This document shows, piece after piece, positions 2,006 to 55,785 of a stretch of DNA of 64,000 bases; the first letter of the stretch is position 1, and each line of letters begins with the position of its first letter. The notes below the pieces were generated by a model. That model was not told the DNA's origin, searched no databases, and saw nothing but the letters and a program-made list of their open reading frames with translations. Position numbers and translations under genes: made by a program. The DNA lies in the NCBI GenBank assembly GCA_041649715.1, contig JBAZMP010000002.1:196964-260963 (forward strand), read 5' to 3'. This stretch comes from Patescibacteria group bacterium (GTDB lineage: Bacteria; Patescibacteriota; Patescibacteriia; JAXHNJ01).

Positions 2006-2120
2006 AGAGGGTTTTTGAAGAATTTTTCGCTAGCTATATTGTAATTATAGTCAACTTGTGCTATGCTTGTACACACTTAAGAGTAGGTCTAAATTCGTAA
2101 AGTTTGAGGGTTTTTCCATA

Positions 2121-10495: not shown

Positions 10496-10496
10496 T

Positions 10497-28310: not shown

Positions 28311-28468
28311 TTCGTGTTCTTCGGGTATTTAAAGGAGGTATTTATAACTCCTATGTAGATTATAGGGGTTTAAAGTCTTTTCGTCAACTTAAAAGATTAA
28401 AAATTGTCATTTTTTAAGATTTAGAATAAAATTAAGACAAATCCGAAGATAACGGAATATTTAACAAG

Positions 28469-29272
28469 ATGTTAAGCAGGGCGAAAAAAAGCAAACCATC
28501 CGTCCGCCAAGAAATCGAAATTGAAAATCTAGAAAACGAAGGGGGCGGGGAATTGAAGGAAAAGGCCACTTTTCAGGTCATTTTTTTATCCTTGGCCGTG
28601 CTTTTGATTTTTTTACCCTTTATTACCACTTTTAATGAGGTTTTGACCCGGGTGGTTGAAAAAATATATTTGTATACCTATATCGAGGATTATATCGTTC
28701 CTTATCTTTCCCGTTTGGTTGGCGTGTTCCTTCTTCCCTTTGGCTTTAAAGTCATTGGCACTACTTCCGGCCTTTACCTGCCGGATAAATCGTTAGCCAT
28801 TGATATCGCCTGGAACTGTATCGGCTGGCAGAGCATGATTCTGATTATTATAACTTTTTTCGCGGGCTTGCAGGGTGAGTATACGAAATTTTCCAAGGGG
28901 CAGACAATATTGATCGGTGTATTGGGCACCTTTATCATAAATGTCTTGAGGATTGCCAGCGTGGTCTTGGTCGCCGTGAATTTCGGTTATTTTCCGGCGG
29001 TAATTTATCATGATTATTTTTCCAATTTGCTGATTGTCTTGTGGCTTTTTCTTTTTTGGTGGTTCACTTACGCTTATGTCTTGGAACCGATTATCGTTCG
29101 GGCGGAGCCGCAAAAAAAGAAAACTAATCTATATTCTATCGGTCGGTTCCGACGCCCTTTTTTTCCGATCCGTTCGCGAATAAAAAATTTGTTCAGCCGA
29201 AGAAAGAAAAAGACAAGCCAGAAATCAAAAAAGAATAATATAGCGGGTCAAAAGGGTGTTTCTAAAAAGTGA
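28469..29272 (+). CDS. exosortase/archaeosortase-family-like polytopic membrane protein (tentative)
   Basis: About 6-7 TM helices. Cys117 sits in AWNCIGWQS and Arg161 in NVLRIAS, spaced ~44 aa apart, as the catalytic Cys/Arg are in archaeosortase/exosortase. Lys/Arg-rich C-terminal tail. Confidence 0.45.
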   Translation: MLSRAKKSKPSVRQEIEIENLENEGGGELKEKATFQVIFLSLAVLLIFLPFITTFNEVLTRVVEKIYLYTYIEDYIVPYLSRLVGVFLLPFGFKVIGTTSGLYLPDKSLAIDIAWNCIGWQSMILIIITFFAGLQGEYTKFSKGQTILIGVLGTFIINVLRIASVVLVAVNFGYFPAVIYHDYFSNLLIVLWLFLFWWFTYAYVLEPIIVRAEPQKKKTNLYSIGRFRRPFFPIRSRIKNLFSRRKKKTSQKSKKNNIAGQKGVSKK

Positions 29273-29385
29273 GAAGTCGATCTTAAATTTTGCATTTTTT
29301 GGTACTTCCCAAACTCGCTCATTTATGTTATAGTATGGTATATTATTATACCGATTTTTTTGTTTAATAACGATCAAGATCATTC

Positions 29386-30810
29386 ATGAGAGTTTTGTTA
29401 ATATACCCCCCGTATTCTTTGCATGAAATTTACGATAAGCTAGAGGCTATCGGTAATACTTCGCCACCTCTCGGGATAGGTTATATTGCCGCGGTATTGG
29501 AAAAAGCCGGCCACGTCGTGAAAGTGATCGACGCCCCAACTCTCAGTTATAAATTAAAGGATATCCTCCGGGAGCTTGAGGATTTTCGGCCGGAGGCGGT
29601 CGGCCTAACCTGTTTGACTCCGGATTTTTCCAAAAGCATTGCTTTAGCCGAAGCGATAAAAAAAATCAGTCAGAGGCCGATCATCATTGGTGGTCCACAC
29701 GTGACGGCCGCCCCGGCGGAAACCATCAGGCATGATTGCTTTGATTTCGGGGTGATTGGCGAGGGCGAGGATACTATTGTCGAGCTGATTAATTTTTTAG
29801 AGCATAGAGCGCCGACCAGCCTTTTTGAGATCCGCGGCCTAATTTTTAGAGAGGGAGAAAGGATAATCCGGACCCCACCGCGGCCTTTTATTTCGGACTT
29901 GGACAAAATTCCTTTCCCAGCGCGGCATTTGATGCCGACCTTTGACCAGTATCACCCGACACCGGCTTCTTACAAACATTTGCCCCTGGGAACTTTGGTT
30001 ACTTCGCGGGGTTGCCCGTTTCATTGTGTTTACTGTGACCGGGCGATTTTTGGGAATATGTACCGTTTTCGGAGTGCCAAAAATGTGGTGGATGAAATAG
30101 AATTGCTAGTTAAAAAATACGGCGCCAGAGAACTACGGCTTTGGGATGATACTTTTAACGCTCAAATTTCTCGGGTTATCGAAATTTGCCAGGAAATTGT
30201 CCGGCGGGGGATTAAAGTGACCTGGACCTGTCTCGGCCGGGTGAATTTCGTGACTGACGATTTGATTAAGTGGATGAAAAGAGCCGGCTGCTGGCAGATT
30301 TCTTTCGGCATTGAGTCCGGCGATGACGAAGTTTTGAAAAAAATCAAAAAAGGTCAGACAAAAGAAATGGTGCGGAAAGCCTTTAAGATCTGCCAGAGGC
30401 AAAAAATGGGCACCCGGGGTTTTTTCATCATCGGTTTGCCGGGTGATACCGAGGAAACAATGCAGGCAACGATTGATTTTGCCAAAGAATTGCCCCTGGA
30501 TGTCGCCGGTTTTTACGTGACCATTCCCTTTCCCGGCACCGAACTCACCGATACCGCAAAAAAGACCGGAGAGCTTTTAATGTCCGAGCATGACCAGTGT
30601 ATGTATGATCAATTCCTAGTTAATTTACCGGACAAACTTTTTTATGTGCCGAATGGTCTTAGCGAGACAGTCATTAGGAAATATCAAAAAAGGGCCTATC
30701 ATGAATTTTATATGCGACCGCGCTATATTTTAAAGCAATTTTTGCAAATCCAGAGCCTAAAAGAATTACTTAATAAAATTAAAGCCTTTTTCGTCATAAG
30801 GGAAATATAA
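29386..30810 (+). CDS. B12-binding domain radical SAM protein
   Basis: B12-binding-like N-terminus (LGIGYIAAVLEKAGHVVKVID...IIIGGPH). Radical SAM triad CPFHCVYC. Confidence 0.85.
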   Translation: MRVLLIYPPYSLHEIYDKLEAIGNTSPPLGIGYIAAVLEKAGHVVKVIDAPTLSYKLKDILRELEDFRPEAVGLTCLTPDFSKSIALAEAIKKISQRPIIIGGPHVTAAPAETIRHDCFDFGVIGEGEDTIVELINFLEHRAPTSLFEIRGLIFREGERIIRTPPRPFISDLDKIPFPARHLMPTFDQYHPTPASYKHLPLGTLVTSRGCPFHCVYCDRAIFGNMYRFRSAKNVVDEIELLVKKYGARELRLWDDTFNAQISRVIEICQEIVRRGIKVTWTCLGRVNFVTDDLIKWMKRAGCWQISFGIESGDDEVLKKIKKGQTKEMVRKAFKICQRQKMGTRGFFIIGLPGDTEETMQATIDFAKELPLDVAGFYVTIPFPGTELTDTAKKTGELLMSEHDQCMYDQFLVNLPDKLFYVPNGLSETVIRKYQKRAYHEFYMRPRYILKQFLQIQSLKELLNKIKAFFVIREI

Positions 30811-30813
30811 ATC

Positions 30814-32916
30814 ATGTCAGTCGGGTTGAAGAAAAATGCGCAAAAATTCATCTTTTTGGTCATTGTGCCAGTCTTGTTGGTGATTTTGAATATCTACATT
30901 ATTTATCCTCTGTTCAGCGGCGACTATAATCAGAATATTTCCTCCATTGAAGTAGCATTCTTCACCGACGCGAAATTTATCTACGATCACTTTCCTCATC
31001 TGACCTGGATGCCGGACTGGTACATCGGTTTTCCTTTTCATAATATCTATACGCCGTTCTTGCCTTTTATGATTGCTTTGCTGCATTGGCTGGTAGGGGG
31101 CGTGACTTTTGCTCACTTTTATCGGATCTTAATGGCCCTTTTCTATATCATCGGGCCAGTCAGTCTTTACTTTTTTGTCCGCTATTTAACCGGCCGTCAC
31201 TTTGCGGGCTTGTTCGCCGCCATCGGTTATTCCATCCTGCCCTCTTTCAGCTATTTAATCGGCGGGACAAGCGCTTACGGCGATATGATCCACCGCGGCC
31301 CGGTTCAATTAGTGATTCTACAAGTCTTCGGGGAGGGACCGCATTTGGCGGCTTTATCTTTGGCGCCACTGGCCGCTTTGGCCTTTTTATGGGCTTTACG
31401 TCAGCCAAAATTCAGCCATCATTTGCTGGCGGCCGTGGCCATCGGGCTGGTGGGCTTGATTAACTGGTTTGGTTTGGTGACTTTGATCTTGATGCTTTTA
31501 GCCGTCTGGCTGTCCGAGATCTTTAAAGGCGAGGGAGGAAGAAAAACCAAAAATACTATAACTATCTTTTCAATGGCCTATGGCTTGATCGCTTTTTGGT
31601 TTAATCTTTCTTTTATCAAGTCAAGCTTAGGTTTTGGCGGCGGCGGTCGGGCCGAAGGAGATATCTTGGCCAATTATCTCAAATTGTTGCCGATGATACC
31701 GATTTTGCTCCCCGTCATCGTGGCCTTGGGCTGGCTTTTGAGCAAAAAGATTAAAAAGTTGCCGGGTTTATTCGTCGGTCTACTCTGGCTCATTATTTTC
31801 TTAATCGTGACCGTTAGTTGGTATCGCTGGGGGATTGCTTTTCTGCCCCAGCCGCCCCGATTTTTAACGGAAGTGAACTTAGCGGCTTTTATCGTTTTGG
31901 CCATCTTCCAGGATGGGATTTTAAAAAAGATTTTACCAGACAGTCAGGCAGGAGAAAAAAAAATAGGCAAGGGGAAACATGTCTTTGGTGGTCTGTATGT
32001 TGTGTTGGTCCTGTTAGCCATATTTTATTTTTCTCGAAGTTTTTTGGCTAATCCGCATGATTTATTGAAGCCTCATGAAGATATCACCAAAACATACCCT
32101 TTTGAAGTGGCGAAATTTTTAGACAGTAACGTCAGTCAAAATGAACGGGTACTGGCCAGCGGGAATATCGCTTTCTGGCTGGATTATTTTTCTGATGTCA
32201 GCCAGGTGAAAGGAGCCGCCGACCAGGCCGCCACTCACCCTTTTTGGAGCCACGCGATTTATCAAATAACCACCGGGGAAAATGCCCCGGAGGGCCGGGC
32301 CGGTGAGATGGCCTTGGTCTGGTTAAAAGCTTTGAACGCGAATTATATCGTGGTTAATACGCCGCTTTCTCACGATCCTTTCTATGATTTTAAGGACCCG
32401 GAAAAATTTGAGACCCTGGAAAAAGTTTATGAATCTCAGGGCGACGTGGTCTATGCCGTGCCTTTAACCAATCCATCTTTGGCGCAGGTCGTGGATGAGG
32501 ACAGATATGGTAGATTAGAAGCCCCGACCAACGGCGTTGATTATCAAAGCGTAAAAGCTTACGCCGACTGGGTAGATAAGCAAGCTAAGCCCGCTAACTT
32601 CAATTGGATAAATAATGATACTTTTGAAATTCAAGCCGACGTTAATGATGGTGATCTAGTTTCAGCCCAGATCACATTTGATAAAGGCTGGCAGATTACA
32701 GGCTCGGGCCATCGTTTGAAAACGGCAAAAGACGTCATGGGCAATCTGGTGATTTTTCCCCGTACTTCGGGCCAATTAATTATCAGAGGACGCTATAAGA
32801 ACACCTGGGATGTCGGTTTTGGCTACTTAATTACTTTGGTCTCCGTCGTCTATTGTATTATTACTCTTATAAGAAATAGAAAAAAGTATGGAATTGAAAA
32901 AAGGGAAAAAAAATGA
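30814..32916 (+). CDS. polytopic membrane protein, GT-C-fold glycosyltransferase-like (paralog 0, lacks WW-KDE tail)
   Basis: N-terminal ~420-aa multi-TM domain with a conserved Asp after TM1 (SGDYNQ) and a FPHLTWMPDWYIGFP loop. A ~250-aa soluble C-terminal domain and a final TM helix. Confidence 0.5.
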   Translation: MSVGLKKNAQKFIFLVIVPVLLVILNIYIIYPLFSGDYNQNISSIEVAFFTDAKFIYDHFPHLTWMPDWYIGFPFHNIYTPFLPFMIALLHWLVGGVTFAHFYRILMALFYIIGPVSLYFFVRYLTGRHFAGLFAAIGYSILPSFSYLIGGTSAYGDMIHRGPVQLVILQVFGEGPHLAALSLAPLAALAFLWALRQPKFSHHLLAAVAIGLVGLINWFGLVTLILMLLAVWLSEIFKGEGGRKTKNTITIFSMAYGLIAFWFNLSFIKSSLGFGGGGRAEGDILANYLKLLPMIPILLPVIVALGWLLSKKIKKLPGLFVGLLWLIIFLIVTVSWYRWGIAFLPQPPRFLTEVNLAAFIVLAIFQDGILKKILPDSQAGEKKIGKGKHVFGGLYVVLVLLAIFYFSRSFLANPHDLLKPHEDITKTYPFEVAKFLDSNVSQNERVLASGNIAFWLDYFSDVSQVKGAADQAATHPFWSHAIYQITTGENAPEGRAGEMALVWLKALNANYIVVNTPLSHDPFYDFKDPEKFETLEKVYESQGDVVYAVPLTNPSLAQVVDEDRYGRLEAPTNGVDYQSVKAYADWVDKQAKPANFNWINNDTFEIQADVNDGDLVSAQITFDKGWQITGSGHRLKTAKDVMGNLVIFPRTSGQLIIRGRYKNTWDVGFGYLITLVSVVYCIITLIRNRKKYGIEKREKK

Positions 32917-35731
32917 TAGTAAACCCAGGCGTCGCTGGTTAACACTCATATTTTTGTTGTTCTCTTTGGCTTTTATGGTCTTTTGCGGCTATCTTTGGCA
33001 GGCCTGGACGGGATTCCCCAAGGGCGTGGATTCCTACGTTCATATGACCAGAATAAAATACGTTCTGGATTTTTTCCCGCATATTGATTGGCAGTACCAC
33101 TGGGCCAATGGCATGCTTCTTTTTTCCTACGCCTCCATTCATTTTATTTTCGGCGCCATTTTAGTCAAGCTCGCGGGTATATCGGCGGCTAAATCCCTTA
33201 TCGTATTGGCCCTTTTCAGTTATAGTTTGATGACCGTCGGAATTTTTGCCATAGTTTACCAAGTGACCAAAAAAGCTTGGCCCGCTTTATTAGCGGTCAT
33301 TTTAACTTTTTCCAGTTTCGGCGCTTGGAACTGGATGGTGATGGACGGGAACTATCCGCGCCTGCTTGGCTTGGGCTTTATGTTTTTAGCCATATATTTT
33401 TATATTAAACTTCTGTCAGAAAGTGGCGAAGGAACAAAATCTAATAAAAAATGGATCATTCTATCCATTATTTTCCTTTTTTCCGCCCTTGTCTCGCACG
33501 TTTTAGCGGCAATGTTCGGTTTTTTGACCTTATTCTTTCTGACCCTATTTTCAAAAATGAAATTCGGCCGTAAATTTAAATATTTATTTATGGTCATTTT
33601 ATCCTCTTTTGCCCTCGCTTCATTTTTCTACTTTTCTCAGATTATTCATTTCTTTTATTTTTCGGGTAATTATGTCGGGGCGATTGGCGATATCGTCCCC
33701 ATGAAGATTTCCTACGTATTTCAAGATACCTTGGGTATCGGATTTCTCCTTCTGCCACTTTTGTTAATATTGGTTCTTGTCAATATTTTTCTTAAACCGG
33801 AGGCAGACAAAGGCCCTTTTGTTTTTTCTTACAGCCGTTATATTTGGTCCTTTATTATTATGTTATTCTTGTTTCTCACATACGCTTTTATCGGTTACAC
33901 CGGCTTGAAGCCTCAATATTACAGCATCCGGGGCTTTATCCCTTTTTCCATGAATATTTTGATTGTCATCTTCAGCAGTCTGCTAATCGGGATAATGCTG
34001 GGGAGGATTTCGGTAAAAAGGGGTATTTATACCCGGATTTTTCTCAGCCTCATGGCTTTAGTGATCATTGGTTATTCTGCCCTCCTGGTTTGGCGATCTT
34101 ACGATACGGTGAGTCATTGCCGGCTAACCCGATATATTTATGATTCATCCTCAGCCAAGCTGTGTGATTCTTTCGCCAGTCATGAATATGTTTCCTCTCA
34201 TTTTTACACTTTTCCAGAAGGCGAGGATTATCAACATCGTTTCGCCCCCTATGACGCCTACGATGCTATCTGGTTCAATTACGCGTATAAAATTCCCCAA
34301 GAGAGGGATTATCATGCCCACGGCGTGCTTTATCCGGATTGGCGCTACTGGTTTGAGCAGGTGGTTTGGAAGCCGAAAGAGTTTACTATGGATGAAGCAA
34401 AATCAGCTTTTGATTGGTTTGCCATTCGTTGGTTTGGCGACCGCGCCGCGGTCGATGAGAAAGCTTACGCTAATTTAGTGGAAAAGACGGCAAATACCCT
34501 AGAGGACAAGCTGGCCGCGATCAATTCCCGCTATCTGAAAGACAAGGATTTTTCTTTAGTAAAATCTGACGCGAACACAGTCACGACACAAAATTTGAGT
34601 CTGGAAATAGAAGTGAAAAATCCCAGCCAGATCTTGGCCGCCAGCAACACACCCACCATCTTATATATCGGCGGAAACGAAGGATACAATCCGTTTTTCT
34701 TCAACCTGACCCTGCATAATTACAACAGTCAGGACATTATCCCCGTCAAAGGCGAAAAATACGTCGATAGTTATAGGCTTAACGATCTCAAACAGTTTGA
34801 TGCCATTTTTCTTTACAGCTACCAATACAAAAACAAGGAAAATGCTTACTCGCTATTGAAGGGTTACGTGGAAGGAGGCGGCAACCTCATTTGGGAGGCC
34901 TGGAACTCTGAAGATGCTCAGGTCCTCCAAAAAGAAACCAATAAAAATAACATTCAGGCTAATAAGGTGAGCTTACCCGAACCTTCGCCGGTCAGCGAGC
35001 TTTCTCTTACGGAGATTTCCGGCGAATGGGATTTTCAAGCCACTAGCGAGCCAATATTCGGTCAGATCAATTTCACAAAATTCAGCCCCCCTAAATATCT
35101 CAGCTCTCCCTGGAAGGTGGCGGTGCCGACTCAAAGCTCAGCGGTTAGAAACTGGGCAAAAGTGATTCTTTCCAGCCAGGACCACCCCGTGATGATCAGT
35201 GGGCAGTATGGCCAGGGCCATATCCTGTGGACCGGTTTTAATTTCAATTATCATATTACCGACACCAAAAATTTTGAGGAAGCGAAGCTGCTGATCAGCA
35301 TCATCAAAAGTCTGGTCGGCAACAAGGGTGAATCAGCCATGGCTGAGGCAAAATTCATCAATCCTGATTTACGGGAAATCAGCCTGGAAAATCCGGCCAA
35401 GGGTGTTTTATTCCGAGAGAGTTTTTACCCCAATTGGCGGGCTCGTTTAAGCGATGGGCAGAAATTGGCCGTTCTTTACGCTGGACCGGGTCTGATGTAT
35501 GTGCCTCTTCCTGAAAACTTAGAGACCGGCTTAAAAGTGATTCTATACTATGATAAGAGCCTGACCGAAAAAATCGGAAGCGTTCTTTCTCTGGTCAGTT
35601 TACTGATTTTTTTGATCTATGTTTTGGAGGGCTGGCTATTCAAGCCGATCCTTTCCCGATTAAGCCAGAAAATCTTCCAAAAATCAACCCATAATTTAAA
35701 AAACTGGTGGGCGAAGGACGAAGATGAATAA
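32888..35731 (+). CDS. giant polytopic membrane protein, GT-C-like (paralog A1) with C-terminal TM + WWAKDEDE tail
   Basis: 947 aa. N-terminal multi-TM domain (GVDSYVH...FPHIDWQYHWANGM). A ~450-aa extracytoplasmic domain. Final TM (VLSLVSLLIFLIYVLEGWLF) then KNWWAKDEDE. Confidence 0.5.
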   Translation: MELKKGKKNDSKPRRRWLTLIFLLFSLAFMVFCGYLWQAWTGFPKGVDSYVHMTRIKYVLDFFPHIDWQYHWANGMLLFSYASIHFIFGAILVKLAGISAAKSLIVLALFSYSLMTVGIFAIVYQVTKKAWPALLAVILTFSSFGAWNWMVMDGNYPRLLGLGFMFLAIYFYIKLLSESGEGTKSNKKWIILSIIFLFSALVSHVLAAMFGFLTLFFLTLFSKMKFGRKFKYLFMVILSSFALASFFYFSQIIHFFYFSGNYVGAIGDIVPMKISYVFQDTLGIGFLLLPLLLILVLVNIFLKPEADKGPFVFSYSRYIWSFIIMLFLFLTYAFIGYTGLKPQYYSIRGFIPFSMNILIVIFSSLLIGIMLGRISVKRGIYTRIFLSLMALVIIGYSALLVWRSYDTVSHCRLTRYIYDSSSAKLCDSFASHEYVSSHFYTFPEGEDYQHRFAPYDAYDAIWFNYAYKIPQERDYHAHGVLYPDWRYWFEQVVWKPKEFTMDEAKSAFDWFAIRWFGDRAAVDEKAYANLVEKTANTLEDKLAAINSRYLKDKDFSLVKSDANTVTTQNLSLEIEVKNPSQILAASNTPTILYIGGNEGYNPFFFNLTLHNYNSQDIIPVKGEKYVDSYRLNDLKQFDAIFLYSYQYKNKENAYSLLKGYVEGGGNLIWEAWNSEDAQVLQKETNKNNIQANKVSLPEPSPVSELSLTEISGEWDFQATSEPIFGQINFTKFSPPKYLSSPWKVAVPTQSSAVRNWAKVILSSQDHPVMISGQYGQGHILWTGFNFNYHITDTKNFEEAKLLISIIKSLVGNKGESAMAEAKFINPDLREISLENPAKGVLFRESFYPNWRARLSDGQKLAVLYAGPGLMYVPLPENLETGLKVILYYDKSLTEKIGSVLSLVSLLIFLIYVLEGWLFKPILSRLSQKIFQKSTHNLKNWWAKDEDE

Positions 35732-38459: not shown

Positions 38460-38463
38460 CCAT

Positions 38464-39180
38464 ATGTCTAGAATATCTATTGCCGAGGAAAAAAGATATT
38501 TCTGGCGGACAGCCAACCCGTACCTTAAAAAAATTGAAAGTGAATTATTGGATTCAATTTTCAGGCCTCTGGCCGGCGGCAATATCCTAGAGGTCGGTTG
38601 CGGCACCGGCGCCAACTTTTTTTTCCTAAAAAAATATTTTTCTGATTTAACCGGCGTGGACCCTTCGGAGAAATCTTTGTCAATCGGGCGCCAACAGGTT
38701 AAGGAAGCAAAATTTTTTTCTGGTCGTGCACAAGTCTTGCCCTTTCCTGATGAGAGTTTTGACGTTATTTTTATGCGGGATGTCTTGCATCATATTTCTG
38801 ACATTCAGGATAAGAGATTGTCCTTGAGGGAAATGAAAAGAGTCTGCCGGAAAGGCGGACAGATCATCCTAATTGAACCTAATTACCGAAATATCATTAT
38901 ATTTTTTCAGTGGTTGTTACGGCCGGAAGAGAAAGGCCTGAAGGATTCAAGAGCCGATTGGCTCAAGAGATGGTTTGAAGAAGAAAATTTTAGTAGAATA
39001 GAAATCAGTCAGGCGGAGCCGCTGCCCCTGGATCGTTTGATCCTCCATTTCCGGACCGGCTGGCCGGCCTTAAGCCGTTTCTTTCTTTTTCGAAAATCAT
39101 TATCTTTTATCAATTCGATCTATAAATTATTAATTCCCCGGAAATTTTGGGCGTATCTTATCTTAAAAACCGAGAAATAA
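38464..39180 (+). CDS. class I SAM-dependent methyltransferase
   Basis: ILEVGCGTGANFFFL motif I. Start set at ATG 38464. Confidence 0.75.
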   Translation: MSRISIAEEKRYFWRTANPYLKKIESELLDSIFRPLAGGNILEVGCGTGANFFFLKKYFSDLTGVDPSEKSLSIGRQQVKEAKFFSGRAQVLPFPDESFDVIFMRDVLHHISDIQDKRLSLREMKRVCRKGGQIILIEPNYRNIIIFFQWLLRPEEKGLKDSRADWLKRWFEEENFSRIEISQAEPLPLDRLILHFRTGWPALSRFFLFRKSLSFINSIYKLLIPRKFWAYLILKTEK

Positions 39181-39182
39181 AT

Positions 39183-41272: not shown

Positions 41273-41273
41273 T

Positions 41274-46118: not shown

Positions 46119-46527
46119 GACTAGTCGGCCAGATGATCAGCTCATAGACGGCAAAATTCAGGGCGGCGCAGATGATGATGGCGATACCCAAGGCGAGAAG
46201 ATAATGCCAGCCGTAATTCAAAAGCACGTTATAAATAAAAAAATTCAAAGCCACGGTTAAAGCGGTCATCAAATAATAAAAGATTATTTTTTTGGTAAAT
46301 TCGCCGAGTTTTTTCACGCTTCTTTCCGACCAGGTCCAGAAATTGTTTAAGAAAAAGTTACTTAAGAGGGCCAGAAAGGTGGAGAAATACCAAGCCAGCC
46401 GGGGATTGATATGGAACCATTCCACCTCGGCGGTAATAACGGCGAAACCGACGACCACCCCGACCAGACCGACCAGACCGAATTTTATCACTTTGATAAA
46501 CATATTCATAATCATACCAAATATCAT
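46084..46527 (-). CDS. GtrA-family membrane protein (polyprenyl-sugar flippase component)
   Basis: 147 aa, four TM helices, with the GtrA-like KFGLVGLVGVVVGFAV N-terminus. Encoded antisense inside the + strand array. It overlaps the end of the upstream gene by 35 nt and starts 3 nt from the next + gene. Confidence 0.6.
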   Translation of the reverse strand: MIFGMIMNMFIKVIKFGLVGLVGVVVGFAVITAEVEWFHINPRLAWYFSTFLALLSNFFLNNFWTWSERSVKKLGEFTKKIIFYYLMTALTVALNFFIYNVLLNYGWHYLLALGIAIIICAALNFAVYELIIWPTSLSSQKNTENQP

Positions 46528-46530
46528 TCT

Positions 46531-47241
46531 ATGAAGCCAATCGAACTCTCTCTCATCTTAACGCTATACAATGAAGGACCGACTTTGCCGGCCAGTCTGG
46601 GGCGTATTTATAATCTTTTAAACCAATCCGGCCTGGTTTACGAAATAATTATTATTGACGATCGGGGTCAGGATGAATCTTGCGCCTTGGCCCAGGATTT
46701 CTGCCTGAAGCAGGATAATTGCCAGCTTTATCAAAATGCCGTTAATCTTGGCCGGGGCGGCGCGGTTTCCCGGGGCATGAGAATGGCCAAGGGGCGTGTG
46801 GTCGGTTTTATCGATACTGACCTAGAACTCTCACCCGAGAGGATACCCGAAGCCGCAAGAATGATTTTGAAAGGTGAAGTTGATGTGGTGACGGGGAAAA
46901 GGAATTATACCTTTGGGCCGGCCTCACACTTGCGCTGGATTTTGACAAAAGGGTATCACGAGCTGGTTAGATTAATCTTGAACCTCCCCCTTAAAGATAC
47001 GGAAACGGGCTTTAAATTTTTTAACCGGGAAAAAATCCAGCCTGTGCTTGAAAAGGTCCAAGACAAGCGCTGGTTCTGGGATACGGAAATCATGGCCAGA
47101 AGCTTTAATGCCGGTTTAAAAATTAAAGAAATTGAAGTATTATATAAGAGAAAGATGGACAAGAAAACAAGCGTCAGGTTCTTCCGGGATTCCCTGGCCT
47201 ACTTGGGGAAATTAGTCCGCTTCAAATTCAAAAAGAAATAA
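46531..47241 (+). CDS. family 2 glycosyltransferase
   Basis: LSLILTLYNEG...IIIDDRGQDES...FIDTDLE GT2 motifs. Start at ATG 46531. Confidence 0.7.
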   Translation: MKPIELSLILTLYNEGPTLPASLGRIYNLLNQSGLVYEIIIIDDRGQDESCALAQDFCLKQDNCQLYQNAVNLGRGGAVSRGMRMAKGRVVGFIDTDLELSPERIPEAARMILKGEVDVVTGKRNYTFGPASHLRWILTKGYHELVRLILNLPLKDTETGFKFFNREKIQPVLEKVQDKRWFWDTEIMARSFNAGLKIKEIEVLYKRKMDKKTSVRFFRDSLAYLGKLVRFKFKKK

Positions 47242-47244
47242 TAT

Positions 47245-49992: not shown

Positions 49993-52756
49993 GATTAAAA
50001 AAGAAAAGAAGAGCTTTTGGCGGGCTAAGCCGGTTTCGATGTTTGCCCACCTGATTTTAATCGTCCTGACCGGCCTTTCTTTTTGGCCTTTCGCGAGTTT
50101 TTACTACCACCATGTGACCCCATTGGGAGGGGATTTTTACCAAACTTCCTCTTATTTCGGCTATTTCTATCGTTTTGCCACTTGGCCGCCGATGCTTTGG
50201 AAATATATCTGGTTCAATGGCCTGCCGGCCGTTTTTGACTATCCCTGGTTGCATATGTATTTAGGGGCGCCCTTGCTTAATTTTTTTACCAGCGTCACCG
50301 CCAATCGGATTTATTCCCTGGCGACACTTTTTTTGTTTTTTGTCTTCAGTTATGCCCTATTTAATAAACTCTCTAAAAATAAAATATTTGCCGTTTTCCT
50401 GGCGAGTCTCTTAATTTGGTCACGCGGTATTTATGTGAATTTGTTCGGCGCGGGCGCTGGCGCCTTTTCCGCCACCATGCTTTTTACGCCGCTCGTTTTT
50501 TATTTATTATTGAAATATTTCGACCGGGGGCAGGCTAAATGGTTGTTGATGGCGGCCGTTTTAAGCGGTCTTTCGGTCGCCGGACATCAGGGGATGAGTG
50601 GTTTATTCGTTTTTATCCCTAGTCTTATTCTTCTCTTCTTTAATAGTGATCCGAATCATAAATTTTTCTCGGGCAAGAAATTCAAGGATCTATTCCTTTA
50701 CCTCCTTTTTTTCCTGCTCTCGGGGGGCTTGGCTTTATACCCGTATATCTTGGCTTTTTTGGGTTCGCTATTTGGTTTTGAAACTATGCTGGAGACGGCC
50801 ACTCAGGCTTGGGCCAAGAAAGACGCTCTGCCCGGGCTTTTTACTTTTACCAACCCCGCTTTTTATTTTACTTCGGGTCTGCTGATTATTTTTATTCTGC
50901 TCCGGAAGAAATTTAGGGAGGCGCTAAAAAAATCCCTAGGTTTCATTATTTTAAGCCTTTATGTGATTATTTATGAAGTCCTGATGTACTACGGGAAAAA
51001 CTTCTTTGCCGAAACCTTAGGGTCGGATCGCGCCTTTTGGTTTTTCCCTCTGGCCTTAGGGGGAATACTGGCGATTTTTTTTCAAAAGATTAGGGCGGAA
51101 AAAAACGCCCAGGTAAAAGTATCTTTCGGCTTTATTTTAAAGGGTTTGGCCATTGCGGCGGTAGCTACCGGCTTTATTTTTGCGCCCAGCATTTACTGGG
51201 TCGTGAGGAATACGACTGGCTTATCCGTTATTACCACCCCGGCGGAGAACCTGATGGCACACCCCAATGAGGCTAACAAAGAGGAGGTGATGCCGGATTG
51301 GTTGGATACGGCGGATAAAAACCACCGTTTGCACACGGCCGGCGCCATGAACATCTGGTGGAATGCCCTGTACGATCTGCCATTGACCGGCGGTTATGCT
51401 GACCCCGAAGGGCCGAAAATGCGCGCTTATAAGTATTGGCGGGATACTTCCATGACCGGGGAGGCCATGGAGCATTTCAAGCAGCCGGAGCCGATTGCCA
51501 AGAATTACGCCTTTTTCTTGATTGATTGGTATGCCATCAAATATATCGAATACTCGAGCGGCAGTTATGCCGCGCCTTCCTATCTTTATACCAATCCGGA
51601 TTTTGTGGCCAAAGAGCAGCTGATGCCCCAAACCGGCTACCATTTTTACCAGGCCAAGGATCAATATTACTCACCGATTGTCAGGCCGACCAATGCCCCT
51701 ACGGTTCTAATCATTTCGACCCAGGAAAGTTATAATACCTTACTGCGCATCATCGCCATGGAAAATATTAATTCCCAATCCCTTATTCCGATTCGTTATT
51801 CCCAATATATTGATGATCTAACTAAAGTTAATTTGAATGATTTTGACGCGGTCTTGCTCTATGATTACCATTATAAAAAAGAGAAAAATTTTCAGAAAGT
51901 TCCCCAAGAGCCTTGGCAGAAACTGGCGGCTTATGTGAAGACGGGGGGCAAGCTATTTATAGAGGGAGGCTCGGATGTCAAGGAGTCGGATATTGGTAAT
52001 CTGCCCGACGGGACTTTGCCTGAGGTTTTTCCGGTGACTAAAACTCAGCGCGAAGATCTGGGCTCGGTCTGGCAATTGGCCATTAAAGAGCCCGATTTGC
52101 TGAAAAACATTAATCCGCAGAAATTTGACGCTTTAGTCTACCAGGACGGTCCCTGGAATCTTTCTTACGCGGAACCGGCGGCGATAAAATCCGGCGCGCA
52201 AATCGTTTTGACCCAAAATGATAAGGCCATTTTAGTGCAGGAAAATTTGGGTCAGGGTCAGGTGCTTTGGTCGGGGATGAATCTGCCCTACCACATTAAA
52301 AGCTATAACAACATTGAAGAAGGCAGGCTTTTCCGGGTCCTATTAAATTCCTTAGTGACCCTGGCGCCAGAAACTCCCCCGCCTTTTAGCTTGGAAAGAA
52401 ATAAATCAGAAGAGATTAAGATCACCAGCCAAAATTTCAAAGGCATTCTTTTCAAGGAAACCTATTACGGCGGCTGGCGGGCTACCCTTTCCGGCGAGAA
52501 AAAGAAGCCTTACGAGGCCGGGGTGGGCATGATGTATTTTCCCTTGGGCAGCGACAAAAATGCGACCGTCGAGGTTTACTACCGGGGTTTGTTTATTTAT
52601 TGGTTGTTGTTCGGGCTAATGATTTTCTCGATCGTCTTCGCGCTCTTCAGTTTGATTTTCGGGGAAAAATTGAACGCTGTCTTTAAAAAACTATTTCGCG
52701 TGGAAAAGATTAAAAAGAAGACCACGTCTTGGTGGGAAAAAGATGAACAGGAATAA
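49982..52756 (+). CDS. giant polytopic membrane protein, GT-C-like (paralog B2) with C-terminal TM + SWWEKDEQE tail
   Basis: 924 aa, tandem paralog of B1 (PLGGDFYQ; WPPMLWKYIWFNGLP). Tail KKLFRVEKIKKKTTSWWEKDEQE. Confidence 0.5.
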   Translation: MKNEIKKEKKSFWRAKPVSMFAHLILIVLTGLSFWPFASFYYHHVTPLGGDFYQTSSYFGYFYRFATWPPMLWKYIWFNGLPAVFDYPWLHMYLGAPLLNFFTSVTANRIYSLATLFLFFVFSYALFNKLSKNKIFAVFLASLLIWSRGIYVNLFGAGAGAFSATMLFTPLVFYLLLKYFDRGQAKWLLMAAVLSGLSVAGHQGMSGLFVFIPSLILLFFNSDPNHKFFSGKKFKDLFLYLLFFLLSGGLALYPYILAFLGSLFGFETMLETATQAWAKKDALPGLFTFTNPAFYFTSGLLIIFILLRKKFREALKKSLGFIILSLYVIIYEVLMYYGKNFFAETLGSDRAFWFFPLALGGILAIFFQKIRAEKNAQVKVSFGFILKGLAIAAVATGFIFAPSIYWVVRNTTGLSVITTPAENLMAHPNEANKEEVMPDWLDTADKNHRLHTAGAMNIWWNALYDLPLTGGYADPEGPKMRAYKYWRDTSMTGEAMEHFKQPEPIAKNYAFFLIDWYAIKYIEYSSGSYAAPSYLYTNPDFVAKEQLMPQTGYHFYQAKDQYYSPIVRPTNAPTVLIISTQESYNTLLRIIAMENINSQSLIPIRYSQYIDDLTKVNLNDFDAVLLYDYHYKKEKNFQKVPQEPWQKLAAYVKTGGKLFIEGGSDVKESDIGNLPDGTLPEVFPVTKTQREDLGSVWQLAIKEPDLLKNINPQKFDALVYQDGPWNLSYAEPAAIKSGAQIVLTQNDKAILVQENLGQGQVLWSGMNLPYHIKSYNNIEEGRLFRVLLNSLVTLAPETPPPFSLERNKSEEIKITSQNFKGILFKETYYGGWRATLSGEKKKPYEAGVGMMYFPLGSDKNATVEVYYRGLFIYWLLFGLMIFSIVFALFSLIFGEKLNAVFKKLFRVEKIKKKTTSWWEKDEQE

Positions 52757-52771
52757 ACGGGCAAGAAATTT

Positions 52772-54238
52772 ATGAAAATACTTTTTGTTATCCCGGAACT
52801 TCTATTAAGCGAACCCTTAGGTTTAATGCGGCTTTCGGCGGATTGCAAAAAATACGGTCACCAAACCAAATTGGCCGTCTTAAAGAAAGATTCGATCATC
52901 CAAAAAATCGAAGAATTCCAGCCCGTCCTGATCGGCTACAGCACCATGACACCTGATGCGCCTCTTTTTAAAGAGGCGGATGAACTCGTTCAAAAATGGC
53001 GCCGGCGGACCGGCCGGAAAGTATACAGGATCATGGGCGGTCCCCACCCGACTTTTTATCCCGAAGTTTTAAGTGAATTGAATCTTGAGGCGATTTGTCT
53101 CGGGGAGGGTGACCGGGCGATCATAGAGATAATAAAAAGAATAGAAAAGGGCGAGAATTTTTCCGGTATTCCCAATGTGATGAGTCAAGCCAGCAAATCG
53201 GTCCAATTGGAATTAATCGACAATTTAGACGCTCTGCCTTTTGCCGACCGCGATATTATTTATGAAGCAGCTCCTTACTATCGTTCCGCGGCATTGCGGT
53301 CTTTTTTAACCGCTCGGGGCTGCCCCTATAATTGCACCTATTGTTATAATCATCTTTACAATAAAATGTTTGGGGGTTGCGGGACGATTATGCGACGAAG
53401 GTCGGTGGCCAATGTAATTGAAGAAATAAAAAAGGTGATTAGGGAGTATCCCCCCGTCCGTTTTATCCGTTTCGCGGACGATACTTTCGTCCATCAGGTC
53501 GATGACTGGCTGAAGGAATTTGCCCGCCGGTATAAAAAAGAAATAAATCTTCCTTTTTATTGCATTACGCGTTCAAACACGATCACGGAAGAAGGGGCGA
53601 AAATCCTAAAAGAGGCGGGTTGCCACTCTATCGGTATGGCGGTGGAAACGGGCGATGAGGCGGTGAGAAACCGGATTTTAAAAAGAAATCTGCCTAATGA
53701 GGTCGTGATCAGATCTTTTGCGATCACCCGTAAATATCATTTTAAGACTTACGGCAACACCATGCTGGCTATTCCCGGTACGACGACCAAACAAGATTTT
53801 GACTCTTTTATTTTCATGAAGAAATTAAGGTTATCCGCCCCCACCTTTGGCATTTTTTCGCCTTATCCCAATACCGAGCTGACGGATTATGCCCTCCAAA
53901 AGGGGTTTTTAAAGGATAAATTCACTCCCACCAAATACGGCTTGAAATCGGTCTTGAACAACTATACGGAAGACGAGAAAGATTGGCAGATTAGGCTGGC
54001 GTATTTGGGCCCGTTATTTTGCGCCTTGCCCGATTTTTTCCTCCCCGTATTCAAATTCTTGCTTAAACTGAAGTTGACGAAGTTTTACATATGGATCGGT
54101 TCAATCTACACCAGCTATATCACTTACGCCAAAACATTCCCCGGCATTTTACCGCGCCAGCCGGTAAAGTTATTTAAGATCGTGAGGGACGCCGTTCGTT
54201 ATTCTCGGCCCGAGGCCGAGGAAAAAATCAGAAATTGA
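52772..54238 (+). CDS. B12-binding domain radical SAM protein
   Basis: Triad CPYNCTYC and an N-terminal B12-binding-like region. Confidence 0.8.
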   Translation: MKILFVIPELLLSEPLGLMRLSADCKKYGHQTKLAVLKKDSIIQKIEEFQPVLIGYSTMTPDAPLFKEADELVQKWRRRTGRKVYRIMGGPHPTFYPEVLSELNLEAICLGEGDRAIIEIIKRIEKGENFSGIPNVMSQASKSVQLELIDNLDALPFADRDIIYEAAPYYRSAALRSFLTARGCPYNCTYCYNHLYNKMFGGCGTIMRRRSVANVIEEIKKVIREYPPVRFIRFADDTFVHQVDDWLKEFARRYKKEINLPFYCITRSNTITEEGAKILKEAGCHSIGMAVETGDEAVRNRILKRNLPNEVVIRSFAITRKYHFKTYGNTMLAIPGTTTKQDFDSFIFMKKLRLSAPTFGIFSPYPNTELTDYALQKGFLKDKFTPTKYGLKSVLNNYTEDEKDWQIRLAYLGPLFCALPDFFLPVFKFLLKLKLTKFYIWIGSIYTSYITYAKTFPGILPRQPVKLFKIVRDAVRYSRPEAEEKIRN

Positions 54239-54255
54239 ACTAAAACCGGAAAGGG

Positions 54256-54924
54256 GTGGGGCGAGAAATAAAATTTATGGTTGATCAAGAAAAATTAGAC
54301 AAGAAGCATGCCGAGGTGCCGCCGGATTATTACGAGGTCGGCTTAGCCAAAAATTTTTGGCAGAAGATTTGGCATCGCCGCCGGCTCAAAACGCTTTTAT
54401 CCCTGGTCCCAAGGCGGAAAGTTAGGTATCTGGATATCGGCTGTCACGGGGGTTTTTTGATGAATCAAGTGGCGAATCAATTAGGCGAAGTCGAGGGGCA
54501 TGGAGTGGATATTTCTCCCGCCAGTATCGCCTATTGTAAAAAAAAGTATCCGCGGTTTAATTATCAGGTGGCTGACGCTTTAAGCCTGCCTTTTCCTAAC
54601 GACTCTTTTGATTTTATCACCTGTTTTGAGGTTATTGAACATTTGGTTGAACCGAAGAAAGCGCTTTATGAAATGAGACGGGTTTTGAAAAAAGACGGGG
54701 AGATTATGGTCCTGATGCCGACGGAAAGTCTGATTTTTCGTGTTATTTGGTTTGTCTGGACGCGGTTGGGGCGGGGCAAAGTTTGGCACGAGACACATCT
54801 CAACAAGATAAAATCCCGCGATTTGGCACCATTGCTTCAAACGATGGGTTTTGCTATAATCAAAAGACAAAAATCACACGGCGGCATGCTCTTGGCCCTT
54901 AAGGCGCGCTTAATGAATAAATAA
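54256..54924 (+). CDS. class I SAM-dependent methyltransferase
   Basis: YLDIGCHGGF motif I and ITCFEVIEHL motif. Confidence 0.7.
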   Translation: MGREIKFMVDQEKLDKKHAEVPPDYYEVGLAKNFWQKIWHRRRLKTLLSLVPRRKVRYLDIGCHGGFLMNQVANQLGEVEGHGVDISPASIAYCKKKYPRFNYQVADALSLPFPNDSFDFITCFEVIEHLVEPKKALYEMRRVLKKDGEIMVLMPTESLIFRVIWFVWTRLGRGKVWHETHLNKIKSRDLAPLLQTMGFAIIKRQKSHGGMLLALKARLMNK

Positions 54925-54931
54925 ATATTCT

Positions 54932-55639
54932 ATGAAAATAGGTTTACTCATCGGCACTTATAATGAAGCGGAAAATATCAAGAATATCGTGGCGGCCGTT
55001 TTCAGCCAAAACATCGCCGGTTTGGAAATTGTCATTATAGACGATAATTCTCCGGACGGCACGGGTCAAATCGCCGACGGACTAAAAAGCCAGGACCGGC
55101 GCGTTCATGTCATCCACCGGCCGAGCAAACTCGGTTTGGGCACCGCCTATATCGCGGGCATAAAATACGCTTTTGAAAGAGGAGCTGAATATATTATAGA
55201 AATGGACGCGGATTTTTCGCATGATCCCAAACGTTTGCCCGTCATGATTGAAAGATTGGAGAAAGACGCGGATGTGGTTATCGGTTCGCGTTTTGTCGAA
55301 TGGGGAAAAAACGACGTGGATTTTATCCGGCGAGTCGTCAGCCGGTTCGGCGGGATTTACACCCGTTTAGTTTTAGGCCCGCCCATCAATGATTTCACCG
55401 GCGGCTTTAACGCTTTCCGGCGGAAGGTTCTGGAAAGCATCGGTCTGGAAAAAATACGCGCCTCAAATTTTTCTTTTCACATTGAGACCAAATACCGGGC
55501 TTACAAAAAAAAATTCCGCGTCGTCGAAATACCTATTATTTTTCCCCGCCGAAAATCGGGGAAAACAAAATTTTATTTCCGGATGCTTTTGGAAAGCATG
55601 TGGTCGGTCTTGAAATTGAGATTCCGAAAAATAGATTGA
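54932..55639 (+). CDS. family 2 glycosyltransferase (dolichyl/polyprenyl-phosphate sugar synthase-like)
   Basis: GTYNEAENI...IIDDNSPDGT...EMDADFSHDP DPM1-like motifs. Confidence 0.8.
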   Translation: MKIGLLIGTYNEAENIKNIVAAVFSQNIAGLEIVIIDDNSPDGTGQIADGLKSQDRRVHVIHRPSKLGLGTAYIAGIKYAFERGAEYIIEMDADFSHDPKRLPVMIERLEKDADVVIGSRFVEWGKNDVDFIRRVVSRFGGIYTRLVLGPPINDFTGGFNAFRRKVLESIGLEKIRASNFSFHIETKYRAYKKKFRVVEIPIIFPRRKSGKTKFYFRMLLESMWSVLKLRFRKID

Positions 55640-55708: not shown

Positions 55709-55785
55709 GGGCGCGTAGCTCAGTTGGTTAGAGCGTACGGTTCACATCCGTAAGGTCATAGGTCCGACTCCTATCGCGCCCACCA
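55709..55785 (+). tRNA. tRNA-Val (anticodon CAC)
   Basis: GGGCGCG acceptor, D-arm GCTCAGTTGGTTAGAGC, anticodon loop TTCACAT, and CCA encoded. Confidence 0.85.

Follow-up and report, generated by a model that had tools for sequence, protein, structure and literature searches.

A candidate envelope glycosylation supercluster with radical SAM enzymes and GT-C-like membrane proteins in a Patescibacteria genome

We analysed a 64-kb stretch of DNA (the whole of which is called the window below) from contig JBAZMP010000002.1 of a Patescibacteria group bacterium, a member of the candidate phyla radiation (CPR), and describe a cluster of 19 tightly packed plus-strand open reading frames (ORFs) called at positions 28469-55639. 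The cluster is best read as an envelope glycosylation supercluster made of stacked cassettes, in which a GT2 glycosyltransferase, a B12-binding radical S-adenosylmethionine (SAM) enzyme (B12-rSAM), a class-I methyltransferase and a GT-C-type membrane protein are combined and the donor sugars would be tailored by radical chemistry; we put the probability of this reading at roughly 60%. The cassettes are unlikely to form a single linear pathway and probably add a number of sugars that are tailored in different ways. Glycosylation outside the membrane by GT-C enzymes is well known; no description of it includes radical SAM chemistry. In the more far-reaching version considered below, in which the sugar is already lipid-linked when the radical enzymes act on it, lipid-linked glycosyl donors would for the first time be seen to be tailored by radical SAM enzymes, and new sugar structures in cell envelopes would result.

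Organization of the cluster

Pfam and NCBIfam assign to the array one protein with an exosortase/archaeosortase signature, four B12-rSAMs, one radical SAM enzyme with a SPASM domain, four GT2s and three Methyltransf_11 proteins, which are joined by one 204-aa protein without a family and five large polytopic proteins, G1 (700 aa) and G2 to G5 (911-947 aa). Junctions between the genes range from -29 to +17 nt, the exceptions being a spacer of 113 nt that follows the first gene and a gap of 412 nt in which gtrA lies, and the plus strand of the array is 98% coding. A first-pass annotation of this DNA had described a 27-kb single-strand array forming one apparent operon. The run of 19 packed plus-strand ORFs is as it described; gtrA, however, lies on the minus strand (46084-46515), and this antisense gene splits the array into two plus-strand runs. 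The same annotation's inventory of four GT2s, three methyltransferases, a SPASM radical SAM enzyme, an exosortase-like protein and five giant polytopic proteins was confirmed by Pfam, NCBIfam and transmembrane (TM) predictions. Its count of five B12-rSAMs in the region must be lowered to four (starting at 29386, 39857, 44730 and 52772). Another B12-rSAM of different architecture (B12-binding, Radical_SAM and DUF4070 domains, 513 aa) is encoded outside the cluster, 25 kb upstream at 2058-3599 (+), and may be the fifth enzyme that was meant.

Two triads of a B12-rSAM, a methyltransferase and a GT2 recur within the array, as had been proposed, although their gene order differs: methyltransferase, GT2 and B12-rSAM at 38464-41272, and B12-rSAM, methyltransferase and GT2 at 52772-55639. 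With MT1 to MT3 denoting the three methyltransferases, the cassettes of the window would comprise G3 with MT1, GT2_1 and B12_2; GT2_2 with the SPASM enzyme; GT2_3 with G4 and G5; and B12_4 with MT3 and GT2_4.

Predicted fold of the giant membrane proteins

The giants are encoded on the plus strand at 30814-32916 (G1), 32888-35731 (G2, 947 aa), 35724-38459 (G3, 911 aa), 47245-49992 (G4, 915 aa) and 49982-52756 (G5, 924 aa). By hydropathy they have about 11-14 TM helices in the first ~405 residues, followed by a soluble domain of 250-450 aa and one C-terminal TM helix. In G3 the TM core spans residues 1-405 and the soluble domain is GATase1/ThuA-like; in G1 two hydropathy scans predict a polytopic N-terminal domain with about 12-14 TM helices, again followed by a soluble domain and a single C-terminal helix. 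The polytopic N-terminal membrane domain (7-13 TM helices) with GT-C architecture that marks the GT-C superfamily is present. G2 to G5 are full-length paralogues of one another (24-40% identity), and G1 forms a separate family. G2 is 31% identical to G3 over its full length (1e-124), and G4 is 40% identical to G5 (blastp E = 0, 613 bits) and 27% identical to G3. Identity is thus higher within the tandem pairs than between them, which indicates that the pairs arose by separate duplications.

Sequence searches place these proteins poorly. Searches of PDB chains with G3 and G1 gave no useful match, none of the giants has a PMT or STT3 Pfam match (PF02516 included), and G4 and G5 have no Pfam match at all. 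G3 matches PF10131 (PTPS_related) with 48.9 bits (cut-off 26.4), but only over profile positions 477-621, which correspond to the soluble part; G2 reaches 16.7 bits, below the cut-off, and G1, G4 and G5 do not match. PF10131 belongs to the GT-C clan CL0111 (PMC7801869).

The fold was assigned from predicted structures of G3 and G1, and extended to G2, G4 and G5 through their full-length homology to G3. A word-indexed homologue search with G3 gave only three matches, and the alignment used for its structure prediction was taken from a full hidden Markov model scan; the prediction for G1 drew on database homologues. The best structural matches of G3 and G1 are PMT and STT3/AglB/PglB-type GT-C(A) enzymes, at sequence identities of 10-13%; the structural comparison gave values of 22.7 for Pmt4, 21.4 for STT3B, 21.0 for Pmt2, 18.8 for AglB, 18.3 for AftD, 17.7 for PglB and 15.8 for ArnT. 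The first loop holds an Asp (D48 of G3, between helices 4-40 and 47-62) that G2-G5 share without exception and that at least 90% of 89 homologues of the giant family retain; it is a candidate catalytic residue. The equivalent Asp is not conserved in the G1 family, where an S-I-E motif is conserved instead. We also considered G1 as an oligosaccharyltransferase and rejected this assignment, since the WWDYG motif is not conserved and STT3 does not match; G1 has AFWLDYF and its family consensus is AFWLNxF, in which Trp alone is conserved.

On these models, all five giants are predicted to be GT-C-fold proteins of two families without described members. GT-C similarity, on whose presence the first-pass annotation had staked its proposal, was found directly for G3 and G1 and by homology for the remaining three. 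We infer that the giants would transfer sugar from a polyprenyl-linked donor outside the membrane. When 1.84 billion representative proteins (one per 50%-identity cluster) were searched with a profile, 629 relatives of the giants were found at E<=1e-30, and the assignment would supply two large families of 'hypothetical' membrane proteins of 700-950 aa with a fold and a probable function.

Glycosyltransferases of the GT2 family

Three of the four GT2s, GT2_1 (39183-39860, +), GT2_3 (46531-47241, +, after correction of its start to 46531) and GT2_4 (54932-55639, +), are small proteins of 225-236 aa with DAD or DTD motifs, the DAD lying at residue 80 in GT2_1 and at residue 92 in GT2_4. Their PF00535 E-values are 1.1e-28, 3e-26 and 1.6e-37, respectively. 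The closest solved relative of each is the Pyrococcus furiosus dolichyl-phosphate mannose (Dol-P-Man) synthase 5mlz (4e-18 for GT2_1, 1.8e-12 for GT2_3 and 8e-29 for GT2_4). It is followed by ArnC for GT2_1, by the Synechocystis GtrB protein sll0501 (2.4e-10) and ArnC for GT2_3, and by ArnC and GtrB for GT2_4. The best NCBIfam models of the three are AglJ, PpgS and PgfS, all below cut-off: GT2_1 scores 137 bits against AglJ (cut-off 325) and 80 bits against PpgS, and GT2_4 scores 77 bits against PpgS. By these similarities GT2_1, GT2_3 and GT2_4 resemble polyprenyl-phosphate sugar synthases of the Dol-P-Man synthase type.

The fourth enzyme, GT2_2 (41274-42161, +; 295 aa), is of a different subtype. 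It matches PF00535 (3.3e-21) and Glyco_tranf_2_3, its best PDB matches are 6yv7 and chondroitin synthase, it has no DxD motif, and its gene is paired with that of the SPASM radical SAM enzyme.

Radical SAM enzymes and methyltransferases

Each of the four B12-rSAMs has B12-binding (PF02310) and Radical_SAM (PF04055) domains above cut-off and a single CxxxCxxC motif, the architecture of class B enzymes. B12_1 (29386-30810, +) matches the two domains with 9.7e-26 and 9.8e-27, carries CPFHCVYC at residue 210 and falls below every NCBIfam equivalog cut-off; B12_3 (44730-46118, +; 1.6e-22 and 1.1e-24) carries CPYACSFC at residue 200. B12_4 (52772-54238, +; 6e-12 and 3.1e-20; CPYNCTYC at residue 184) is the most divergent of the four and is 33% identical to the second B12-rSAM of an Elusimicrobia locus (L162). 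B12_2 (39857-41272, +) belongs to a tight and widespread family; its closest solved structures are QCMT (9ccb, 5e-25) and AprD4 (6fd2, 5e-21). C-methylation is the commonest activity of the B12-rSAM class, in which GenK, GenD1 and MoeK5 are listed as Csp3 methylases (PMC12931638).

The radical SAM enzyme with a SPASM/twitch-type C-terminus (42154-43224, +) matches PF04055 with 8.2e-15 and PF13186 with 6.1e-07 (30.1 bits, cut-off 21.5), carries CNSRCQTC at residue 35 and has SkfB as its best PDB match (3e-10). Only five Cys are found in its C-terminal 90 residues, against the seven-Cys motifs, which fits a partial SPASM or a twitch domain. The three methyltransferases are class-I SAM enzymes that match Methyltransf_11: MT1 (38464-39180, +; 2.6e-24), MT2 (43224-44129, +; 6.2e-16) and MT3 (54256-54924, +; 3.5e-23). 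MT2 has an N-terminal Trm112-like zinc ribbon, with CPVC...CPEC in the first 30 residues and a weak Trm112p match.

The family resemblances of the B12-rSAMs raise the question of whether lipid rather than sugar is the substrate. HpnJ is the top NCBIfam model for all four enzymes, followed in varying order by BchE, a ladderane-lipid radical SAM model, ApyD, PhpK and HpnR, so that lipid-related models are among the best matches of B12_1 to B12_4. In the known HpnI/HpnK/HpnJ pathway a radical SAM enzyme follows a glycosyltransferase in acting on a lipid-linked sugar, and several recently described B12-rSAMs modify archaeal lipids, judging by the titles of the reports. The enzymes might then act on the polyprenyl carrier, a scavenged membrane lipid or a glycolipid head group, as HpnJ and calditol synthase do, and would yield a lipoglycan or a glycolipid of the membrane in place of a tailored sugar donor for transfer. 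All of these NCBIfam matches, however, lie far below their cut-offs, including the best of them, the full-length match of B12_2 to HpnJ at 278 bits (cut-off 577.6). The constant partners of the enzymes are Dol-P-Man-synthase-like GT2s and GT-C transferases, which are users of lipid-linked sugar donors, and Pfam and NCBIfam scans found no lipid-synthesis gene in the cluster. We consider lipid tailoring unlikely.

In a second alternative the target is a ribosomal peptide or a surface protein, which the radical SAM enzymes would mature together with the methyltransferases and GT2s, by C-methylation, thioether formation and S- or O-glycosylation, with the membrane proteins exporting or anchoring the product. 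It could account for weak matches to radical SAM enzymes of peptides that are ribosomally synthesized and then modified post-translationally (RiPPs), namely ApyD, rSAM_ocin_1 (TIGR03975, a RiPP maturation radical SAM C-methyltransferase) and ScmE, for the weak match of GT2_1 to SunS and the rank of SkfB as first among the solved matches of the SPASM enzyme, and for the fact that the closest solved B12-rSAM, the glutamine C-methyltransferase QCMT, methylates a protein. These matches are generic and below cut-off, and the partners that are conserved, GT-C enzymes and flippases, are those typical of glycan assembly. Furthermore, a plus strand that is 98% coding, with junctions of at most 17 nt except at two gaps, leaves no space for a RiPP precursor gene, and we rejected a RiPP cluster on this ground. 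Peptide or protein maturation is very improbable as an explanation of the region, and glycosylation with tailored donor sugars remains our preferred reading.

Conservation of the cassette across phyla

A metagenome scan with B12_1 to B12_3 yielded 80 loci with best-segment identities of 31-75%, most of them 31-49%. A GT2 gene is directly adjacent on the same strand in 33 of the 80, usually immediately upstream, and tandem B12-rSAM paralogues occur in 22, with nine in one locus. Where at least 5 kb is available on both sides (24 loci), a same-strand GT2 is found within 5 kb in 16 and a polytopic protein in 18. The polytopic neighbours were too divergent for BLAST clustering, which gave no grouping, and a Pfam scan of all 60 was used instead. 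It found 24 PMT_2 matches (8 of these also PMT), 2 YfhO, 2 GT87, 1 DUF2142 and 3 DUF6541, together with 10 matches to flippase families of the MOP type (5 Polysacc_synt, 3 MatE and 2 MurJ); a single protein may enter more than one of these counts. The locus with nine paralogues (L123, Ga0315277_10000191) packs them into about 16 kb, interleaved with GT2s and two polytopic proteins.

B12_2 has 3849 homologues at E<=1e-30 among 8000 scored word-sharing candidates, many of them 45-58% identical over their full length; named sources are Patescibacteria, Elusimicrobia, Omnitrophota and Nitrospirota. We annotated with Pfam the neighbourhoods of six orthologues that are 51-54% identical to B12_2, from Elusimicrobia, Omnitrophota, Gottesmanbacteria and three taxonomically unassigned sources. 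A GT2 of 211-229 aa lies immediately upstream of the orthologue in four of the six and one gene upstream in a fifth. In five the cluster includes a Methyltransf_11 gene, and five have a Pfam-annotated GT-C protein (PMT_2, PMT or a PF10131 giant), the sixth having a sub-threshold PMT_2 match. GT2_1 is 45-57% identical to the partner GT2s in L162, L163, L165, L166 and L167; these paired identities indicate that GT2_1 and B12_2 are an orthologous pair inherited together. On a 434-kb contig (L163) the bare cassette of GT2, B12-rSAM, methyltransferase and PMT_2 protein stands between glycyl-tRNA synthetase genes and ispA/PFOR.

The phyla Elusimicrobia and Omnitrophota are diderm. In the loci from these phyla (L162 and L164, respectively) the GT2/B12-rSAM/PMT_2 cassette lies beside genes for Glyco_transf_9 (heptosyltransferase family) and asparagine-synthase-like proteins, surroundings that suggest decoration of the lipopolysaccharide core or of lipid A as the target there.

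A separate scan with the giants, reduced to one genome per species and annotated with profiles built from the window proteins, gave 77 loci from Patescibacteria, Chloroflexi, Dormibacterota, Actinomycetota, Bathyarchaeia, Aigarchaeota, Nitrososphaerota and metagenome-assembled genomes (MAGs) labelled Gammaproteobacteria. Near the giant there is a GT2 in 49 of the 77 loci, a methyltransferase in 36, an exosortase-like gene in 17, a G1-type protein in 17 and a B12-rSAM in 7, most of the last being CPR loci. Tandem giants are common, 34 of 106 having an adjacent giant on the same strand. Chloroflexi, Dormibacterota and Aigarchaeota share a recurrent order of a large PgaC/CelA-like GT2, an exosortase-like gene, a G1-like gene and a giant. 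The association of an exosortase-like protein with G1 and giants is older and is seen in these other phyla; the radical SAM cassettes were, on our reading, added onto this core in CPR lineages. The pairing of a GT2 of about 300 aa with a SPASM radical SAM enzyme also recurs (twice in L005, and in L010, L031, L032, L128, L133 and L139).

Many giant loci with CPR-like gene content (L029, L032, L035, L036, L038, L041, L046, L052-L054, L064, L069 and L072) come from MAGs labelled 'uncultured Gammaproteobacteria/Pseudomonadales', labels that may be wrong.

The array is more than a chance assembly: its gene order is kept in a relative whose proteins are 60-70% identical (see below), and its sub-modules recur across phyla. 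The density of CPR genomes and the housekeeping genes that directly flank the cluster might suggest that unrelated genes have come together by chance in a compact genome. This is contradicted already by the recurrence of the orthologous GT2/B12-rSAM pair, with GT-C and methyltransferase partners, in at least three named phyla (Patescibacteria, Elusimicrobia and Omnitrophota) and in unassigned contigs, with varied surroundings, and by the conservation of the full order at 60-70% identity, and we regard it as extremely improbable. Co-conservation of B12-rSAM, GT2 and giant-protein genes in related genomes, the other point on which the first-pass annotation had made its proposal depend, was found well beyond related genomes. 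It is possible, at somewhat less than even odds, that the GT2/B12-rSAM/methyltransferase/GT-C cassette represents a widespread undescribed pathway of Patescibacteria, Elusimicrobia, Omnitrophota and others, in which a polyprenyl-phosphate monosaccharide would undergo cobalamin-dependent radical modification before its transfer to the surface. Such a pathway would give a functional context to a tight B12-rSAM family with thousands of members, and the cassette, being small and widespread, might reveal new sugar chemistry of the envelope in phyla without cultured representatives.

The cluster in its closest relative

The closest relative is represented by three loci (L002, L082 and L129), apparently of one species, whose proteins are 60-70% identical to those of the window cluster. 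Its gene order is LCP, B12_1, G1, G2, G3, methyltransferase, GT2, B12-rSAM, GT2, SPASM enzyme, methyltransferase, the 204-aa gene, B12-rSAM, GT2, two giants and a B12-rSAM, and the flank of LCP, pth and mfd is shared with L002. The exosortase-like gene and gtrA are missing from this otherwise syntenic cluster (L002, and for gtrA also L129). At the position of gtrA the relative encodes a hexapeptide acetyltransferase, a Polysacc_synt_2 dehydratase and a DegT aminotransferase (L002 20509-22778; L129 3082-6908). This trio, with a 4,6-dehydratase-type Polysacc_synt_2 protein, resembles PglD/F/E and hints that a diacetamido-trideoxyhexose feeds the GT2_3/G4/G5 module in the relative.

The exosortase-like gene (28469-29272, +) opens the window cluster and encodes a membrane protein of the exosortase/archaeosortase family, of an unnamed subfamily (TIGR04178, 32.1 bits, cut-off 23). 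None of the named Xrt or Art models is passed, the best being cyanoexosortase C with 26.7 bits (cut-off 225); the XrtG model does not match the window protein and gives 29 bits (cut-off 103) for a homologue in L017. C117, R161 and H181 are invariant across 10 homologues from four phyla, and in Chloroflexi, Dormibacterota and Aigarchaeota homologues adjoin members of the G1 and giant families. The protein ends in a Lys/Arg-rich extension of about 70 aa (residues ~200-267) that occurs in none of nine homologues.

The gtrA gene encodes a small membrane protein of the GtrA family (PF04138, 2.3e-17, 63.7 bits, cut-off 26.1), and its minus-strand call also appears in the ENA record (ERZ27247363); NCBI names its product 'GtrA family protein'. 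By family, GtrA is a putative flippase of lipid-linked sugar. The gene is convergent with B12_3 and divergent from GT2_3. The two divergent starts are only 15 nt apart, and any promoters must therefore be located within the coding sequences next to them. The 5' end of gtrA is overlapped by a promoter-like site on the minus strand that has an extended -10 element (46511-46540 region).

These findings bear on the proposal of the first-pass annotation that all twenty genes constitute one operon and one linear pathway, which makes a single heavily C-modified glycan with a dedicated GtrA flippase and a sorting enzyme. The packing, with overlapping stops and starts, is extremely tight, and the order is kept in the relative, as this proposal would predict. 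Against it, gtrA is on the opposite strand and, like the exosortase-like gene, dispensable in the relative; cassettes occur singly elsewhere (L163); and the giant pairs stem from separate duplications. The absence of both genes from the relative, and of any identified sorting-signal substrate in the 64-kb window, also speaks against the notion that the pathway has its own targeting components. We give a single linear pathway only a small chance, and favour instead an assembly of cassettes that act on several sugars.

The 204-aa soluble protein (44119-44733, +), whose start and stop overlap the neighbouring genes, has no Pfam, NCBIfam or PDB match, and a comparison with the methyltransferases by hhalign was not significant (probability 9%). 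Among the loci annotated with window-protein profiles, homologues are found only in L002 and L129.

Proposed pathway

The envelope glycosylation that we propose would proceed in four steps. Judging from their closest solved relatives, GT2_1, GT2_3 and GT2_4 would load a sugar from a nucleotide sugar onto polyprenyl phosphate at the cytoplasmic face. The adjacent radical SAM enzymes would then tailor the sugar, most likely by C-methylation of an unactivated carbon, with deoxygenation (AprD4-like), epimerisation or ring contraction (HpnJ-like) as alternatives, and the SAM methyltransferases would add O- or N-methyl groups. This second step is suggested by conserved gene adjacency, and its substrate could equally be the nucleotide sugar before transfer. 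GtrA, or a flippase encoded elsewhere, would flip the lipid-linked sugar, and the five GT-C enzymes would pass it outside the membrane to an acceptor, which may be a lipid, a glycopolymer of the wall, or a protein of the surface or of a pilus. The giants that form two tandem pairs of paralogues might act as heterodimers in the manner of Pmt1-Pmt2, although this is speculative.

Several points weigh against this reading. All of the functional assignments come from homology and gene neighbourhood; no protein of the array passes an NCBIfam equivalog cut-off, and none could be placed in a named family below superfamily level. The small GT2s have no predicted TM helices and lack the C-terminal ones of GtrB and ArnC. 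A methyltransferase is present in only 4 of the 24 well-flanked B12-rSAM loci. The gtrA gene is antisense and missing from both the closest relative and the minimal cassette of L163, which weakens the flipping step. Patescibacteria are not known to make cobalamin, and AprD4 works without it, so that the 'B12' domain may not bind B12; no diagnostic sequence motif exists by which cobalamin use could be judged. If cobalamin really is used, surface glycosylation in CPR bacteria would be tied to B12 from hosts or neighbours, and the envelope of B12-auxotrophic episymbionts would need scavenged cobalamin.

Relation to known systems

The first-pass annotation had recognised in GT2, GtrA and GT-C proteins the logic of three-component extracytoplasmic glycosylation, and had called the combination with radical SAM enzymes and a sortase-like protein not a described system. 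The former holds at the level of similarity, in that three GT2s are Dol-P-Man synthase/GtrB/ArnC-like, a GtrA protein is present and the giants have a predicted GT-C fold. Regarding the latter, we likewise found no publication that couples a B12-rSAM to GT-C or polyprenyl-phosphate glycosylation, in a literature whose coverage here is incomplete and does not prove absence.

Three-component systems, including pentofuranose systems, have been described (PMC11127046). Those of Shigella and Salmonella (GtrA/GtrB/Gtr*), CsbB/GtcA/YfhO and PpgS/Rv3632/Rv3630 share with the cluster a small polyprenyl-phosphate-synthase-like GT2, GtrA and a GT-C protein with a large extracytoplasmic domain. In contrast to them, the cluster has five GT-C-like proteins of two families outside the CAZy-named Pfam families, of which only G3 reaches PF10131, and that via its soluble part. 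Its GT2s are without membrane helices, its gtrA is antisense and dispensable in the relative, and it interleaves these genes with four B12-rSAMs, one SPASM radical SAM enzyme and three methyltransferases, an arrangement that literature searches found in no described three-component system.

In the hopanoid pathway, the glycosyltransferase HpnI and then the radical SAM enzyme HpnJ act on a lipid-linked amino sugar, with ring contraction of the HpnJ type (PMC13459092). The likeness lies in the sequence of events, in which a glycosyltransferase of the HpnI/HpnK/HpnJ pathway puts the sugar on the lipid and a radical SAM enzyme with a B12 domain then rearranges it. The window enzymes, however, score below half of the HpnJ cut-off, neither hopanoid genes nor HpnK are present, and a Dol-P-Man-synthase-like GT2 followed by a GT-C protein implies a transferable donor and not a terminal cyclitol ether. 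Neither the three-component systems nor HpnI/HpnJ combine both of the elements found here.

Loci of XrtG, which consist of XrtG, a TIGR03111 GT2 and a Firmicu-CTERM protein, resemble the cluster in that an exosortase-family protein with Cys, Arg and His adjoins a GT2 and a PF10131-related GT-C protein. The window protein differs in passing only the family signature and in being missing from the closest relative; there is no large synthase-type GT2, and no sorting-signal protein was found in the 64-kb window, a genome-wide substrate search not having been made.

B12-domain and SPASM/twitch radical SAM enzymes that act on sugars are known from GenK, GenD1 and MoeK5 (C-methylases), AprD4 (a diol dehydratase and the second-best solved relative of B12_2), BtrN and NeoN. 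Those enzymes belong to secondary-metabolite clusters of cultured actinomycetes, whereas the cassettes described here are envelope cassettes of uncultured phyla, and the similarity is at superfamily level only.

G3 and G1 share with PMT and with STT3/AglB/PglB (GT-C(A)) a polytopic core, an acidic residue in the first loop and a large luminal or extracellular domain, and the tandem giant pairs recall the Pmt1-Pmt2 heterodimer. They differ in their low sequence identity (10-13%), in the lack of WWDYG conservation and in a soluble domain that is GATase1/ThuA-like rather than of the MIR or AglB type. Finally, the Dol-P-hexose synthase AglJ of archaeal Agl N-glycosylation provides the best NCBIfam model of GT2_1. 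In that pathway AglP is a SAM methyltransferase acting on the lipid-linked glycan, and AglS and AglB carry out GT-C transfer. The host here is bacterial, and the Agl pathway is without radical SAM enzymes.

Boundaries and other features of the window

The cluster is bounded, as the first-pass annotation had stated, by a divergent LCP (LytR-CpsA-Psr) gene on the left (26835-28310, -; PF03816, 5.7e-38, with LytR_C) and by a tRNA-Val(cac) gene on the right (55709-55785, +; ARAGORN). Beyond LCP lie pth and then mfd, and to the right of the tRNA are genes for a signal peptidase and then HisRS. We infer a functional link between LCP and the cluster; the gene is otherwise context only. Horizontal acquisition of the cluster as an island is not suggested by composition (GC 0.41-0.46 inside, 0.42-0.49 in the flanks), and the flanks are syntenic in L002.

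Scans of the window for promoters and terminators were noisy and did not resolve transcription units, the counts of promoter-like sites exceeding those of shuffled sequences only modestly (49 against 33±6, and 32 against 17±5). The one pair that stands out lies in the spacer between LCP and the exosortase-like gene, where divergent promoter-like sites are found at 28387-28359 (-) and 28404-28432 (+), as consensus matches only.

Elsewhere in the window, an open-ended plus-strand ORF of more than 1660 aa runs from about 59029 to the end at 64000, in a region where GC reaches 0.51; the ENA record gives it T4SS_pilin and Big_5 domains, and this giant surface protein is a conceivable glycosylation target. 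At 13653-15956 (+), a 767-aa protein with about 11-13 predicted TM helices (residues 16-474) followed by C-terminal TPR repeats has a TMTC/PMT_2-like architecture and may be a sixth GT-C protein. The adjoining gene (16093-18156, +) encodes a 687-aa protein with one N-terminal TM helix and no family. A tandem pair of tRNA-Met(cat) genes spaced by 1 nt lies on the minus strand at 10420-10571.

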